From a virus: 21,112 bases of DNA. The position numbers were made by a program. The stretch is taken from the UHGV virus genome UHGV-0072395. One strand, given 5' to 3'. Positions 15,001 through 21,000 of this stretch are shown one piece after another (position 1 is the first letter of the stretch; the number at the start of each line of letters is the position of its first letter).

Positions 15001-18000
15001 CCTATCAATTGCGCAGTTTGTTCGTTGCGCAGCCAGAATGCTGGCTTGTGGCGGTCAAGGGAACCGGATGCACGATGGAGATCATTTAGGCAATAGCGAC
15101 CAAGGACATCACGACGAACAGAAATACCATCGATGACAAAAAAAGAGTGATTATTGGATGCAGCAGCACCCATGACGTGGTTAGTCATAGCTTTCTCCAT
15201 ACATTTTTATGTGACGAAGGGCCTGCACGCCCGTTTCGTTTGCACACCTTGAGATTAATGCTAAGTTGCATAGACTTCAACCTACCACTGAACAAACATC
15301 CAGCGTTTTTTCATACGCCGATATCGTGATTTCTACCCGCCCTCCCTTGACGTTTTCACCCCACTCAATGGCCATCCGCTTAACCTGGCTGTCATCTTCC
15401 CAAATCCCGGTATAAGTCAAAGCATCAAGCAGTGCCTTGTTGTAGTTGTCCAGGTCTCTCCTCCGGTAGTCCGGCGGGTAAAGCATTATTTCTACGGTTG
15501 CTGGCGCCGAGGATGGTTTAGGTATTGTTCGCAATTGCTCAATGACAGCTACACGCACCGCATGCTTAAACTTGCGGCCTGCCGCACTGACAAGAAGTTT
15601 GCCTTTTGCAGGCCCCTTATTTGGGGATCGCCAGTAGGCATTCACACTGGGCGGGAAAGGAAGAAAAAATTTCATCACTCCTCCAGAACAATTTTTATTT
15701 CGAAAGGCGCGTCGCCACCGCAATAGCAGAGTTTCCCCAGGTCAGACATGAGACTCCAAAGCGTCATTTCTAAATAGCCATCGTCATCTGTCGCCGGCGG
15801 CACGAACTCTCCGAATATTCCCGGATGACGGATACGATTCTCCTCGTGTTGGCTTTTCAAATGCCTCAGGGCTACGTCATAAAGCTTCACCTTTACGATG
15901 CTGTTGAGGTTAACTGAAACCTCCCTGGTCAAAAGCGAAGTGGTGATGCTGATACCGCGGGAAACCCCGCGGGTAATTTTGATGGCACCCTTTCTCTCCA
16001 GTGCCTTGAGGTGGGTTGCCGCCGCATTGGGGGACCGGCACCCCAGCATGCCGGTCAGTTCATAGGTGGTCGGGGGGAAGCCATGTTTACGCTGGTAATC
16101 GATCAGGAGGTTCAGAACCTCCTGCTGCCTCAGAGTTAACTTCATCATGCGGCCCGCTCCTCTTTGTTTATGCACATCTCAGGCAAATTAGCCCTCACCA
16201 GCGCTTCGGCGAACGGTGGCGGCACGGCGTTTCCACAGCGAGCCACCTGTTTATCTTTGGCGTACTTCACGCCGCGGTAGTCCCGGTCGATGATGTACCA
16301 CTCCGGGAAGCCCTGGGCGCGGTAGAGCTCATGCGGTTGCAGCATGCGCATCCCGATATCGACGATGCGGTATGTCACGCCGTCAATCTCCACCAGGCCT
16401 GTGCTATCCGGTCCGCAATACTCTTTCAGGAACGCCAGCACCTGCTGGGCGCGCTCCTCGTCGTAGTCCTCGACCGCAAGTGTCGTTTTAACTTCTCCCA
16501 CATGCTGGCCGCCGGCGGTGACCGTCGGCATCGGTTCGTCAGCGCGCTGGCCGTCACGGCAGGTTCCACGCAATTTGACCAGGTGAGATGAGACTATTGC
16601 CGCGTCGGCTTTCGTGGTCATCGTCTGCAGCGGTTCGCTTACATCACGCGGGCGGCTCTGTCCTGCTCGTCCACCAACGCCAACAACCTGAGCAGTTACC
16701 AGGGCGTGATGATCAACCGTCGTCACTGAGTGCGCTGGCTCATCCAGCCCTACGCCCGGCCCGGAATAGTTCCCACCATAGTGTTTCGCCAGAAATGCGC
16801 CAACGACCGCATGTTTACCGCCTCCAGCAACTACAGTACCCAGCGGTTTATCCAATCCCGGTACACGAGGCGCCTGGCCGGGCCTCTCTCCATAACCCAT
16901 TTGAATAAGCGTCGGTACCACCAGCTGCGATTTACCGCCGCCGCCCGCGGTAATTGTCGCGCTGGGCTCGTCTGCGCGGTGGCCGATGCTGCCACCAAAC
17001 TGGCGCGCAATGACCGGTGCAACCAGACAGGCGCGGGACTCTTTCAGGATGGTGTGAGCAGGTTTATCCACTGGCCGTGGCTTCGCCTGGTACTCGCTGC
17101 CGCCATTTCCGGCCAGAAACGGTGCCAGCTCAGCTTCAACGATACCCAGTGCATGACCATTCCCACCCGGGCGTTTTGACGTGCCGGCGGTCACCGTAGG
17201 TACCGGATCAGTAACTGTCTGCCCGGTGGCGCCGGTGCGGAATTTTGTCAGGTGCGGTACCGCAATTGCGTACCCATGAGTTTTGGTAATCGTCTGTAGA
17301 GGATCGGCCAGGGCCTGCCCCCGAAAACAGTCGTATTTGCCACGGGTGGTTGTGTGGTTGCATTTCACAATGAACGGATCCGCGCTGTCGATAACGAAGC
17401 GCTGAATGCCGCGGGCGATGCGTTTGAGCGTATTCTCTGCCAGCGGCTTTTTGCGGTCGAATATCGATCGAGCGGCAATAGTCCAGTCGATGCATTCCGC
17501 CGCGGTGCGAAACGGTGCCAGCTTGCCTGCCTGCACCGCCGGAGATTTCGGATCCCCGTGTGTAGCCTCCGGCCAGACAATAGGCTGATCATCACGACGC
17601 ATCACCATGAAGAATCGTTTCCGGATGGTTGGGGTACCGAGGTCAGATGCGCGCAGTTCACGGCAATCCAGATCGTAGCCAAGCCCGGCAACCAGCCGCT
17701 GTGCCTGCTTGCTTTCCGGCGAGAGTTCCAGAAATTCGCAGCACTCCACCAGCGCGGGATGATCTGCAGGAATGCCGGTTGTCAGCATGCCGACGAATGC
17801 CTGGAATGTTTCGCCAACGCGCGCCGGGTCCGGCCGCATTTCTACTGCCAGCAGCGGGCCCCACGTTTTGAACTCTTCCACGTTCTCCAGCATCATAACG
17901 CGCGGGCTCAAATCCAGCGCCCAACGGAGGACGATCCACGCCAGCCCCCGGATCGCTTTCTCTACCGGCTTCGCCCCTTTCGCCTTCGAGAAGTGGCGGC

Positions 18001-21000
18001 AATCTGGCGAAAACCAGGCGAGACCTACAGGTTTACCGCTGGTGGCCGCTAAAGGGGATACGTCAAACACGCTCTCGCAATAGTGCAATGTGTCAGGATG
18101 GTTAGTGCGGTGCATGGCCACAGCGTTTTCGTCGTGGTTAATGGCAATATCAACGCTGCGCCCGATCGCCATTTCTATCCCGGTAGATGCCCCGCCGCCG
18201 CCAGCAAAATTATCAACAATCAGCTCACGCATGGCTCGCCCCCTGCATGCTTTCAACCAGTCCACCAGCAATAGCGATGATTTCACTGGTGGGCATACGC
18301 TCCAGCCAGAGCTGGTTAATATGTGCTTTCAGCTTGTTTTGATGGGACAATTCCATGCCTTCGGCTCCTTCAACCTGTCGAAACAACAGCCCTACTTCCA
18401 ATGGCCAGATCCGTGATTCCGTCTCCGGTAATTCGGAAGGTGCAGCAGGTGGTTCTACTGCTGTCGGCTGAGGATTCATTTGTGCTGGAATATTGCCAAC
18501 AGCAAACTGTGCCAGTCTCATAAATGCCTGGCCTTTAGCCTCCAGGTCGGAGCGGTGGATATAGCTAAAACTCTCGCCGCGCCAGGTCTTATCAAATACT
18601 GCAATGGCCCCTGCAAAGAACGCGCTGGTAGGCTTCTGCTTTTCGTCGGCCGGCACAAACCACGCAGGTAGATCGAATCCAATTCGACCACGAATAAACA
18701 TGATGTGATCAGCATCTTCCGGCCACCATGTTTCGCTTGTTGCTGACTTCACGAGGTAAATGTAGCGACCGCCCTTCTCACGCTGCTCGGTGGTATAGTT
18801 CATGATATGAGCCATGCCTGTGATGGCTTGTTTTTCATGGTACTGCGAGCGGCTATACGGCGGGTTAGCAAAGGCCGCGCCGCCGAGTTCTACCAGACGA
18901 CCAGACCAGTCCTGCGTCAGCGCATTATCTTCGGCGGTGTACCATGCCGGGCATTTTGCATTGCTGTCATCAGCGAACAGATCCAGAACCAACGGACCAA
19001 ACATCGCGTTGATCCCCCAGAACAGTAGCTCCGGAGTGCGCCATTGATCCCCTACGTCTTTCAGGTAATGGGCGCTACACTGGCGCTGCTCTTCGAGCGC
19101 AAGGCAATAGGGGCTGATGGTTTTCACTGCCGTTATCTCTTCGGCGCTCATCAAATCCTCAACTTCCTGAATCATAGTTTTCCCCTACGCTGATCAGCTC
19201 GTACGAGTGCCCTTAGAAACCAGTAACGGCGGTCAAAGCTGAAAATGCCTCTGGTGAGTAATGCAAAATTTCTGCGGAATAAAACATCGTGCTTCCACCA
19301 GGTTCGCCAGTGATTGATCCGTAAATGGCGGCGGATCGAGCTAATTAATCGGAGCACAGATCACCTCCGCAGTAATTACCGGCCAGCACGGAAATTCCGC
19401 TGGTATTCATCCCACTTTTGGCATTGCGCACACACTGGTTTTTCATCCGCATATAACGCTCTCTGGATTTAACGCTGCAGTTTGAATCGCACAGCTGCTG
19501 CCAGACCGTCGCCGCCCGGCGGAAGTAGCGCCGGCTTTCCAGGCTCCTCGCCACCAGTTCCAGATTGCGCATTGCTTCTGAGGTATCCTCTGGCTGGATT
19601 TTGTCATTTCCTTCAGGGCTACCGGCGACACGATAACGAAATACACTCGACGTTTCGGCACTCGCCAGACGGCCCTCGTAATACATGCGGTGTACCGCGT
19701 TCTTCACAGACATGGGGTTGCACTGAGGGAATGCCGCAATGATGTCCCGCATCATCACCCCAGGGTTTTTCTCGATAAACTCGAATGCCGATTTAGCAAT
19801 AATCATCCCCGGAACCCCGCTGGAATTGTGTTTTGTACCGGACTAACTGAATTGATATCTCGTGGCTTGTTTTTGTCCCATGCCTCTCTTGGCGGCCGGC
19901 CTTTAGCATCCCAGCGGATAGCGCTTTGCAGATAGCCTTCGAATTTTTTTGGGCCAAAGAGCGTCTCAGGTCGCATGTACTGGTATTGCTCGTCGTTTTC
20001 ATGCCAGTGCTCATGCTTCAGGTCGATTACCAGTTTCAGGTCGCTGACGGCATGTCCATCGCGTAGACGGGCACGGATGTTTTCCAGGGAGGATTTTGAT
20101 TTCTGGAAACGGGAACCGCTGACCTGGTTCAGGTGGGCCAGAACTTCGATCGCATGATCGGTAATAACCACTTCAGGATCCGGCTTATCGTCGGGATCCG
20201 CAGGAACCCGACAAGAAGGTTTTTTAGATGACGGATCTAATGACGGATCTAATGACGGATCGCCTTCAACCATTGAGGGGTCCCCCGGCAATATTTGAGG
20301 GGATGCAGACCCATTATTTGAGGCCTCAGATTTTGACCCTTCAAATTTTGAACCCTCAATTTCTGAGGCCTCAAATTTTGATTGTTCCTTAGGAGGCGAA
20401 TAGAAAATTTTTGCCTCTGCAGCTGCACGCTCCAGCATGTCTACGTTTAGTTTGTAGACGTTCGAGTTATTCTTCCCACCAACCCGGCGCTCTTGTTTCT
20501 TCAGCCACCCTTTTGCTTCCAGTTTTTTAATAGCGCTGCGTACAGTATTCTCACTCTTGGCACCGATCTGGCGCTGTATAGTGGTCACAGCAGGCCAGGA
20601 AACGCCTTCATCGTTGCTGAAGTCAGCCAGGCGGGCCATGACCGCTATTTCGGATATGATCAGGCCTTTGAAAGCGCATGCTTCCCAGACCAGACCGTGT
20701 AATTTACTGCTCATGGCTGCCCTCTACTTCCCTGAACTTGCGTTGAAACTGATCGAGTGGGCTGAAACATTCGTGCGGATACCCTTCTCGCAGGTAAATG
20801 ACACGCCGTGTCTCAGGCTCCCAGCGGATGACTCTGACGGGCTTTCCGTAGTGATCTTTGAACTTTCGGTTAACTTCTCGCATAGCGCTTTAGCCCTCCG
20901 GTTAAAGACCCCCACAACTCCACGCGCCCGGCTGTGGTTACATTCGACCCACTTCCCGCATACCATGCGTTCATACCGAAACGACGAAACACCCGGGATC

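Follow-up and report, generated by a model that had tools for sequence, protein, structure and literature searches.

We analysed the viral genome UHGV-0072395, a whole metagenome contig of 21,112 bp (ENA ERZ773187 NODE_1176; hereafter the window), and focused on two overlapping genes on its minus strand, which encode a phage-type N6-adenine methyltransferase (Dam) and a C5-cytosine DNA methyltransferase (C5) of 695 aa. We read this block, with a probability of about 0.6, as a methylation module of the early-right (nin) operon of a lambdoid prophage, in which the phage Dam carries a putative adaptor domain that we call X, the C5 enzyme is probably multispecific through an array of eight units, and the downstream gene for a protein with a LexA-like DNA-binding domain (LexA-DBD) is a mere neighbour. 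As a type of module, orphan methylases are familiar from phages. This one probably holds an uncharacterised variant; its C5 looks like a much enlarged Gram-negative counterpart of the multispecific methylases long known from Bacillus phages. We are more tentative, at somewhat short of an even bet, about the joint proposition that a very large and apparently uncharacterised C5 family, from phages of Gram-negative bacteria and beyond, is multispecific by means of combinatorial arrays of up to about a dozen swappable miniature target recognition domains (mini-TRDs), and that the X of one clade, repeatedly fused to adenine methyltransferases, builds a complex modifying two bases.

The C5 gene (16145..18232, minus strand; ATG at 18232, stop at 16145) encodes a protein that matches PF00145 (E=3e-19) and retains the motifs FAGGGG (aa 9-14), SPDCRHFS (aa 75-82), ENV (aa 116-118), RKR (aa 204-206), RMLQPHE (aa 629-635; motif IX) and GNAVPPP (aa 667-673; motif X). 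In an alignment of 61 sequences, the columns of motifs I, IV, VI, VIII, IX and X were invariant and in the canonical order. The N-terminal catalytic part with motifs I-VIII (aa 1-288; 17369..18232, minus strand) was modelled by AlphaFold2 (AF2) with a predicted local distance difference test score (pLDDT) mostly >85, while the C-terminal catalytic part with motifs IX and X (aa 587-695; 16148..16474, minus strand) was recognised from motifs, alignment and AF2. The best Foldseek matches of the core were 3g7u, DNMT1 and M.HhaI (E 1e-7 to 1e-10), that is, the enzyme has the same catalytic fold as M.HhaI and the other solved monospecific C5 enzymes. Between motifs VI and VIII lies a helical insert of ~32 aa (aa ~151-183, GIPADHPALVECCEFL...LVAGLGY; 17684..17782, minus strand), with helices at aa 159-167 and 175-182 that were confidently modelled.

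The distance from motif VIII (aa 204-206) to motif IX (aa 629) is ~420 residues and holds eight units of 32-48 aa; M.HhaI has a single TRD of ~80 aa, whereas the window enzyme has eight shorter units without a confident structural model. The array spans aa 295-586, and each unit carries an anchor of the pattern [D/E]-[E/K]-P-x-x-T-[IV]-[TVL] (at aa 311, 343, 391, 423, 463, 499, 534 and 567), with a Gly/Arg-rich stretch before it and a short hydrophobic strand after it. All on the minus strand, the units are unit 1 (aa 295-328, type T21, ...FRGQALADPLQTITKTHGYAIAVPHL; 17249..17350), unit 2 (aa 329-372, type T2, TKFRTGATGQTVTDPVPTVTAGTSKRPGGNGH...; 17117..17248), unit 3 (aa 373-406, type T11, GNGGSEYQAKPRPVDKPAHTILKESRACLVAP; 17015..17116), unit 4 (aa 407-442, type T8, RQFGGSIGHRADEPSATITAGGGGKSQLVV; 16907..17014), unit 5 (aa 443-480, type T1, YGERPGQAPRVPGLDKPLGTVVAGGGKHAVV; 16793..16906), unit 6 (aa 481-516, type T13, KHYGGNYSGPGVGLDEPAHSVTTVDHHALVTA; 16685..16792), unit 7 (aa 517-548, type T10, GVGGRAGQSRPRDVSEPLQTMTTKADAAIVSSHL; 16589..16684) and unit 8 (aa 549-586, type T6, LVKLRGTCRDGQRADEPMPTVTAGGQHVGEV; 16475..16588). 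Unit 8, the only one modelled by AF2 with moderate confidence against the core, is followed by a degenerate ninth unit, FLKEYCGPDSTGLVEIDG, which links the array to motif IX.

An exhaustive HMMER search over 1.84 billion cluster representatives retrieved 2480 clusters (50% identity) of this C5 family at E<1e-30, with lengths of 464-1113 aa and 1-12 anchors per protein; phage records with a member include Pseudomonas F116 and Ralstonia, Aeromonas, Vibrio, Rhizobium and Klebsiella phages. Within the window C5, the units share just 3-11 of 34 anchored residues with one another, and each of them has close counterparts at different ordinal positions in proteins that are ~45-60% identical overall, the best being a match of 29/34 residues to unit 5 in a protein ~50% identical overall. 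Average-linkage clustering of 807 units from 151 family representatives gave 115 clusters, 33 of them recurrent; single linkage chained all the units into one cluster. The same type occurred twice in one protein only 4 times, against 60.1 +/- 6.6 expected (minimum 33) in 2000 shuffles of the types among the 151 proteins, and all 151 architectures were distinct. Of 27 often co-occurring pairs of middle types, 22 were seen in both orders. Other types show a positional bias: T4 and T7 occur only at the end of an array, T6 and T9 in the final or penultimate place (T6 in 34 of its 35 occurrences), and T3, T14, T18 and T21 are usually first.

Close relatives of the window C5 differ from it by exact whole units: a 92%-identical protein is longer by 37 aa, a 94%-identical one is shorter by 144 aa (four units), and a 63%-identical one shows changes of +37, -73 and -35 aa. 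The 48 viral contigs that belong to the same prophage lineage as the window have the same flanking genes and hold five collinear C5 alleles of 616, 656, 660, 695 and 732 aa. The 695-aa allele of the window has the types 21, 2, 11, 8, 1, 13, 10 and 6; unit 5 is missing from the 656-aa allele (21, 2, 11, 8, 13, 10, 6), unit 7 from the 660-aa allele (21, 2, 11, 8, 1, 13, 6), and both unit 2 and unit 7 from the 616-aa allele (21, 11, 8, 1, 13, 6), while the 732-aa allele has the array of the window plus one extra unit. In 77 close homologues with the window architecture, after same-length but shifted sequences had been filtered out, the amino acid diversity of the units (0.053) equalled that of the catalytic core (0.057 and 0.048), which argues that the array is under constraint and is no drifting linker. 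No DNA-level repeat was detected in the array, and we therefore consider it ancient, neither a recent expansion nor an assembly artefact. As in multispecific enzymes, types recur in new combinations and single units are gained or lost; single units would then be dispensable for activity.

The TRD of C5 methyltransferases lies between motifs VIII and IX (PMC5944983), and Bacillus phage enzymes use tandem TRDs to methylate several sequences (PMC8936443). The variable regions of these Bacillus phage enzymes hold T-[LIV]-anchored units of ~40-50 aa, two in phi3T/SPbeta (GLSPTLTTMGGGHREPKIA; GEPAFTVNTIDRHGVAIG), three in SPR and four each in rho11s and H2, with the same unit types in differing combinations. 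Their known specificities number two for phi3T/SPbeta, three for SPR, two for rho11s and three for H2, the difference being made up by silent "pseudo" domains, so the anchor count is an upper bound on the number of targets. Like M.SPRI, M.Phi3TI/M.SPBetaI, M.Rho11sI, M.H2I and M.BssHII, the window enzyme is a phage-borne orphan with a single catalytic core and contiguous anchored units between motifs VIII and IX, in which a T-[LIV] dipeptide is followed by a Gly-rich loop. It differs from the Bacillus phage enzymes in the number of units (eight, and up to 12 in its relatives, versus 2-4), in the Gram-negative hosts and very large size of its family (2480 clusters) and in its anchor (D/E-P-x-x-T-[IV]-T versus S-P-T-L-T-T); its own clade is associated with a small upstream X protein. 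HMMER aligned the SPbeta unit IKRVYSPEGLSPTLTTMGGG with residues 238-257 of M.HhaI, the TRD core GERIYSTRGIAITLSAYGGG, which we take to be the segment with the conserved Thr-Leu and the recognition loops. Unit 4 (GHRADEPSATITAGGGGKS) has the T-[IL]-[TS]-x-x-G-G-G pattern of the M.HhaI and SPbeta TRD core, a likeness at motif level only, and unit 6 (DEPAHSVTTVDHHALV) resembles, without statistical significance, a unit (EPAFTVNTIDRHGVAIG / EPAFTVNTIDRHGVAI) common to all four Bacillus phage enzymes. From the position of the units, their anchor pattern and, above all, their cassette-like and non-redundant evolution, we infer that each unit may be an independent mini-TRD.

Several variants of the C5 gene deserve mention. 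Five family representatives of 1000-1100 aa (P0127, P0183, P0188, P0250 and P0267) have an extra region of ~400-500 aa in or ahead of the catalytic part, which is neither Dam nor X; a Dam or an X at the N-terminus of the longest family members (900-1100 aa) was looked for and none was found. In two contigs of the same prophage lineage (L034 and L041), the C5 frame upstream of position 6001 appears disrupted, with no motif I in the open reading frame (ORF) that ends at the LexA-like start, and these genes may be methylase pseudogenes. The PHROG family phrog_29443 (273 positions) matches the window at 18232-17765 and 16061-15675, that is, aa 1-156 of the C5 and then, from the LexA-like protein, aa 30-157. 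Hence, in some phages, an internal deletion has fused the C5 and LexA-like genes, with loss of the whole recognition array. The GC content of the C5 gene (window 16000-18000) is ~60%, as compared with ~50-52% in its neighbours, for which the Gly/Ala/Pro/Arg-rich units or a source of higher GC could account.

The Dam gene (18225..19175, minus strand) encodes 316 aa, in which a phage-type N6-adenine methyltransferase is joined by a Pro/Ala-rich linker to the C-terminal domain X. The catalytic domain (aa 36-217; 18525..19070, minus strand) covers positions 3-168 of the 169 of PF05869 (E=6e-44; 150.1 bits, cutoff 28.1), and the protein scores 190.9 bits against the equivalog TIGR01712 phage_N6A_met (cutoff 97.05). 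This full-length match above the curated cutoffs, together with the (D/N)PPY motif, here FANPPYS, identifies a phage Dam, and the PADLOC model MTase_II PDLC03332 spans aa 23-311 of the fusion. The preliminary description of this DNA had named a Dam-like enzyme with an NPPY motif and a cytosine methyltransferase; both classes are borne out, with PF05869/TIGR01712 and PF00145 matched and the motifs intact. The full-length match, the NPPY motif and the location in a lambdoid early region are shared with T1 Dam and with the Dam of the Stx phages VT2/933W, and the homologues in E. coli Nissle prophages are ~81% identical at the DNA level. From what is known of the family, GATC would be the expected target. 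In addition, the window protein has a linker and the three-helix X, which does not belong to the Dam family and is also found alone or on MT-A70 and other methyltransferases.

Domain X (aa ~253-316; 18228..18419, minus strand) is a three-helix bundle, and its stop codon overlaps the C5 start. When 80 diverse viral loci with a gene of the C5 family were searched by tblastn with the window Dam, the match was often confined to the last ~65 residues of Dam, directly upstream of the C5 gene; an X located there and ending at the C5 start was present in 52 of the 80. The consensus reads ...E-T-V-W-P-A-E-V..V-F.Q-V-E...L....Q.[RK]-L-K-H-H-I-N-R-M-W-L-E..P...I-I..A..L, with W257, P258, E260, V261 and N287 invariant. 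We found X in five contexts, namely as a standalone protein of 85-89 aa (20 loci), fused to a PF05869 Dam as in the window, fused to a PAPS-reductase and a Dam, fused to an MT-A70 adenine methylase, and fused to another kind of class-I methyltransferase that has a DPPH motif. The longer relatives that bear X (among them those of L054, L064, L066, L076, L078 and L105, with ORFs that end at ~5004) are of two classes, one of 440-460 aa with Dam, a middle part of ~200 aa and X, and the other of 579-596 aa with a PAPS-reductase domain, Dam and X. AF2 modelled the three helices of X confidently (pLDDT >90 over query residues 15-70); X matched no Pfam family and no PDB sequence, and Foldseek against the PDB returned only generic three-helix bundles with E>1. 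A homologue search with X yielded only 33 close and mostly fragmentary proteins without a Pfam domain, and the only name on these in the protein collection was "N-6-adenine-methyltransferase, partial".

The presence of X goes together with the helical insert of the C5 core. Of the 52 loci with X, 48 had a scorable C5 gene, and the spacing from ENV to RxR (motifs VI-VIII) was 85-88 in 46 of these 48, whereas 16 of the 22 C5 genes that lack an X had a spacing of 52-57; the wider spacing is due to the ~32-aa insert. This co-occurrence fits a docking of X on the insert (aa ~151-183), which is possible, and we infer from the comparative pattern that X may be a partner or adaptor of this C5 clade. 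The 8-nt coupling to C5 belongs to X, a domain fused onto Dam, rather than to Dam itself.

In the early-right operon of this lambdoid prophage of Klebsiella/Raoultella, the methylase block comes after the replication genes and before RusA/Q, which is the classic place for self-protection methylases of phages. On a 58-kb contig of the same prophage (L002), the gene order is cI-like repressor, cro/YdaS, cII-like, DUF4222, O-like, PerC-like, Dam, C5, LexA-DBD, RusA, KilA-N, a gene of no assigned function, DUF968/HNH and antiterminator Q, beyond which come a low-GC two-gene cassette in the opposite orientation and the holins; a ParB-like gene is among those upstream of the methylases. Proteins of Klebsiella quasipneumoniae, K. 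pneumoniae and K. oxytoca match the window C5 at 99-100% identity, and many others of Klebsiella and Raoultella do so at 90-97%, while E. coli genomes gave DNA matches of only ~77-81%. The genes of the block overlap as had been described: the Dam and C5 genes by 8 nt (18232-18225; ...CC ATG CG TGA...), and the C5 stop and LexA-like start by the 4 nt of a common ATGA (16148-16145). Overlaps are the rule across this operon, including 1 nt (15675) between the LexA-like stop and the RusA start and 4 nt between RepO and PerC, so an overlap alone marks no gene pair as functionally linked. The operon is tightly packed and translational coupling is likely, and the overlaps are probably no sign of a special link between particular genes. 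Within the methylase block, neither a consensus promoter nor a strong terminator was found.

The LexA-like gene (15675..16148, minus strand) encodes 157 aa, of which the N-terminal 68 are LexA-like (PF01726, E=3e-20). The E. coli LexA DBD (1lea/1jhf) matches residues 2-68 from end to end (E=9e-17, ~55% identity over 67 aa), and the recognition helix SPNAAATHLKAL is nearly identical to that of LexA, SPNAAEEHLKAL, but Glu44/Glu45 of LexA are replaced by Ala/Thr. The C-terminal ~85 aa showed no S24 peptidase match, no dimerisation domain and no cleavage site, and the whole protein scored 63.7 bits against TIGR00498 lexA, below the cutoff of 110.95; as its C-terminal part is unrelated to the S24 peptidase, the protein is no LexA orthologue. 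SOS boxes were not enriched in the window (8 sites versus 5.5 expected). Close relatives of this winged helix-turn-helix (wHTH) protein are found in the order Dam-C5-LexAlike-RusA in 48 of 48 viral loci, all of one prophage lineage. Only 6 of the 80 diverse C5 loci, four of them of the window's own lineage, have a LexA-like gene immediately after C5, and three more have one elsewhere in the flank; in other phages the place is taken by DinI, DUF968, RusA or an unrelated gene. A dedicated regulator would be expected to keep its linkage to the methyltransferase across lineages, and this gene does not. In our reading, the LexA-DBD gene is a neighbouring gene of the nin region and has no dedicated regulatory part in the module. 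The C5 methylase of Klebsiella phage 5 LV-2017 is followed by a DinI homologue, so two different SOS-related proteins fill the slot after C5. An SOS-related role for the window protein, as an uncleavable LexA-type DNA binder, would be speculation, and a link between cytosine hypermethylation and SOS damping is possible.

In the mechanism that we propose, the block would be transcribed only in lytic growth, to judge from its position, and would modify the progeny phage DNA so that it survives restriction in the next host, as expected from what is known of these families. The first layer is a Dam of the T1/VT2 type, to which the adenine methyltransferase is assigned by its profile matches. In the second, each unit would pair with the single C5 catalytic core and read its own short DNA sequence, which would make the enzyme multispecific with up to eight targets, some units perhaps being silent pseudo-units; architecture and evolution both point this way, and the gain, loss and reshuffling of units as cassettes would retune the spectrum of protection. 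In the third, X possibly docks on the clade-specific helical insert (aa 151-183) of C5, and through its fusion to Dam the two methylases, adenine and cytosine, would be held in one complex, with their translation coupled. Phage P1 Dmt, a fused adenine and cytosine methyltransferase, offers a parallel, in that N6-adenine and C5-cytosine methyltransferases are again paired in a single expression unit of a phage; the window enzymes are separate polypeptides with an 8-nt overlap and a proposed small adaptor domain, whereas P1 Dmt is a covalent fusion.

The multispecific reading of the array has several points against it, and its strongest competitor, which we nonetheless consider unlikely, is that the array forms a structural or DNA-binding scaffold that confers one long or relaxed specificity, or nearly non-specific processive methylation like that of M.EcoGII (an adenine enzyme). 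AF2, with the 61-sequence alignment, gave pLDDT <50 over aa 289-549, and we therefore draw no structural inference on the units or on docking; as far as it goes, the model hints at units of the strand-loop-strand kind, able to join into one continuous sheet, which would suit a scaffold, as would the low complexity of each unit with its Gly-rich loops. The likeness to known TRDs is at motif level only: BLASTP of the window C5 against M.SPBetaI showed no significant similarity in the variable region (a local alignment over both SPbeta anchors had E=0.039), and the T8 unit profile found no solved TRD among PDB sequences, with chance hits only (PhzF and others). The typing of the units depends on a regular-expression anchor and an arbitrary clustering cut, and their order is not free (minority-order fraction 0.12-0.23), so that a partly ordered structural array would also fit. 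The case for multispecificity is one of architecture and evolution only. For X, the co-occurrence with the insert is confounded with phylogeny because the loci bearing X are the closer relatives, there is no informative fold match, and its binding partner is a guess. Nevertheless, a scaffold does not predict the near-absence of duplicate types (4 versus 60 expected), the strong conservation of types across distant proteins at different positions, or viable natural alleles without single internal units, and for the Bacillus enzymes, which follow the same anchor logic, multispecificity has been established by experiment (PMC8936443).

The remaining explanations concern the block as a whole. The preliminary description took it for a phage anti-restriction module with the coupled wHTH gene as its possible regulator; the plain case is one of two ordinary monospecific orphan methyltransferases, one Dam-like and one Dcm-like, that protect phage DNA under control of the LexA-like protein. 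The first half of this is reasonable but ordinary and holds in so far as intact orphan methyltransferases do sit in the nin operon: both belong to bona fide families and lack a restriction endonuclease (REase), and the three genes overlap in an order kept by all 48 loci that have a close wHTH relative. The regulator, however, finds no such backing, since the 48 loci represent one lineage and are not independent, direct adjacency was seen in merely 6 of 80 diverse loci, overlaps occur at every gene pair of the operon, and a 695-aa C5 with eight non-redundant cassette-like units is no ordinary Dcm; the plain case in its entirety is rather improbable. We find it still less probable that the methylases serve mainly an epigenetic or host-manipulating purpose, such as setting host or phage expression, timing replication, or triggering or blunting the SOS response. 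Orphan methyltransferases with regulatory roles are known (PMC13076061, PMC12435837), and SOS-related genes, LexA-DBD here and DinI in Klebsiella phage 5 LV-2017, lie just downstream of C5, yet the position in a lytic early operon speaks against expression in the lysogen, and an array that varies combinatorially is more in keeping with an arms race against diverse restriction systems than with a regulatory target that stays fixed. As the methylase genes are in a lytic (PR-type) operon, comparing the methylomes of a lysogen and a cured strain would probably show nothing. Least credible, to the point of being very improbable, is that the module is the modification half of a restriction-modification system with its endonuclease elsewhere. 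PADLOC labels both proteins 'Type II methyltransferase', but no REase turned up in the 21-kb window, scanned with Pfam and PADLOC, or in the 10 kb that flank C5 on each side in the 58-kb contig, in agreement with the earlier statement that an endonuclease partner is absent, and other window ORFs matched only RusA, DUF968/HNH, the terminase-associated HNH, TerL/TerS, holins, Q and similar. No cognate REase gene adjoins either methyltransferase, as one would in a type II system, the flanks are ordinary lambdoid genes, and the same block occurs without an REase in 48 viral contigs.

In the searchable literature, outside which most older or subscription papers and REBASE lie, we found no description of this C5 family, of multi-unit C5 enzymes of Gram-negative phages, or of X. 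Orphan methylases are annotated routinely in phages and as a rule receive no attention. If the eight units are independent recognition domains, one catalytic core would mark up to eight different sequences, a compact and evolvable counter-defence against many restriction systems, and multispecific methylases would be cassette-programmable and several-fold more complex than the classical Bacillus phage enzymes. The natural allele series in Klebsiella prophages makes the assignment of units to targets directly testable. A dictionary of ~35-aa recognition modules of 5-methylcytosine (5mC) writers would help to predict phage host range in a clinically important genus, to interpret nanopore 5mC signals and to engineer targeted or multiplex methyltransferases. 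X would be a small protein family new to the biology of methyltransferases and would explain the frequent coupling of adenine and cytosine methylase genes in these phages.

Next in the operon, and outside the methylation module, is the gene for the RusA Holliday-junction resolvase (15277..15675, minus strand; PF05866); the remaining genes of the window are those of lysis, the terminase-associated HNH, TerS and TerL. Between the antiterminator Q and the lysis genes, a slot where Stx phages carry stx, lies the two-gene cassette (9956-12368, plus strand), which runs against the operon and has a GC content of 33-35% in a prophage of ~51%. Its first gene encodes an NA37-like nucleoid-associated protein (PF04245), and its second a protein of 417 aa with no Pfam or PADLOC match; the cassette looks like a moron, possibly for defence or host takeover. 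Between it and the holin genes are a tRNA-Thr (anticodon TGT; 9120-9194, minus strand) and a match to the Rfam small RNA STnc100 (8847-9071, minus strand; 90 bits, gathering score 47). A small HNH endonuclease (3488-3829, minus strand), which is not a restriction enzyme, is encoded just upstream of TerS (2841-3305) and TerL (1151-2887), an arrangement typical of HK97-like cos-packaging phages.

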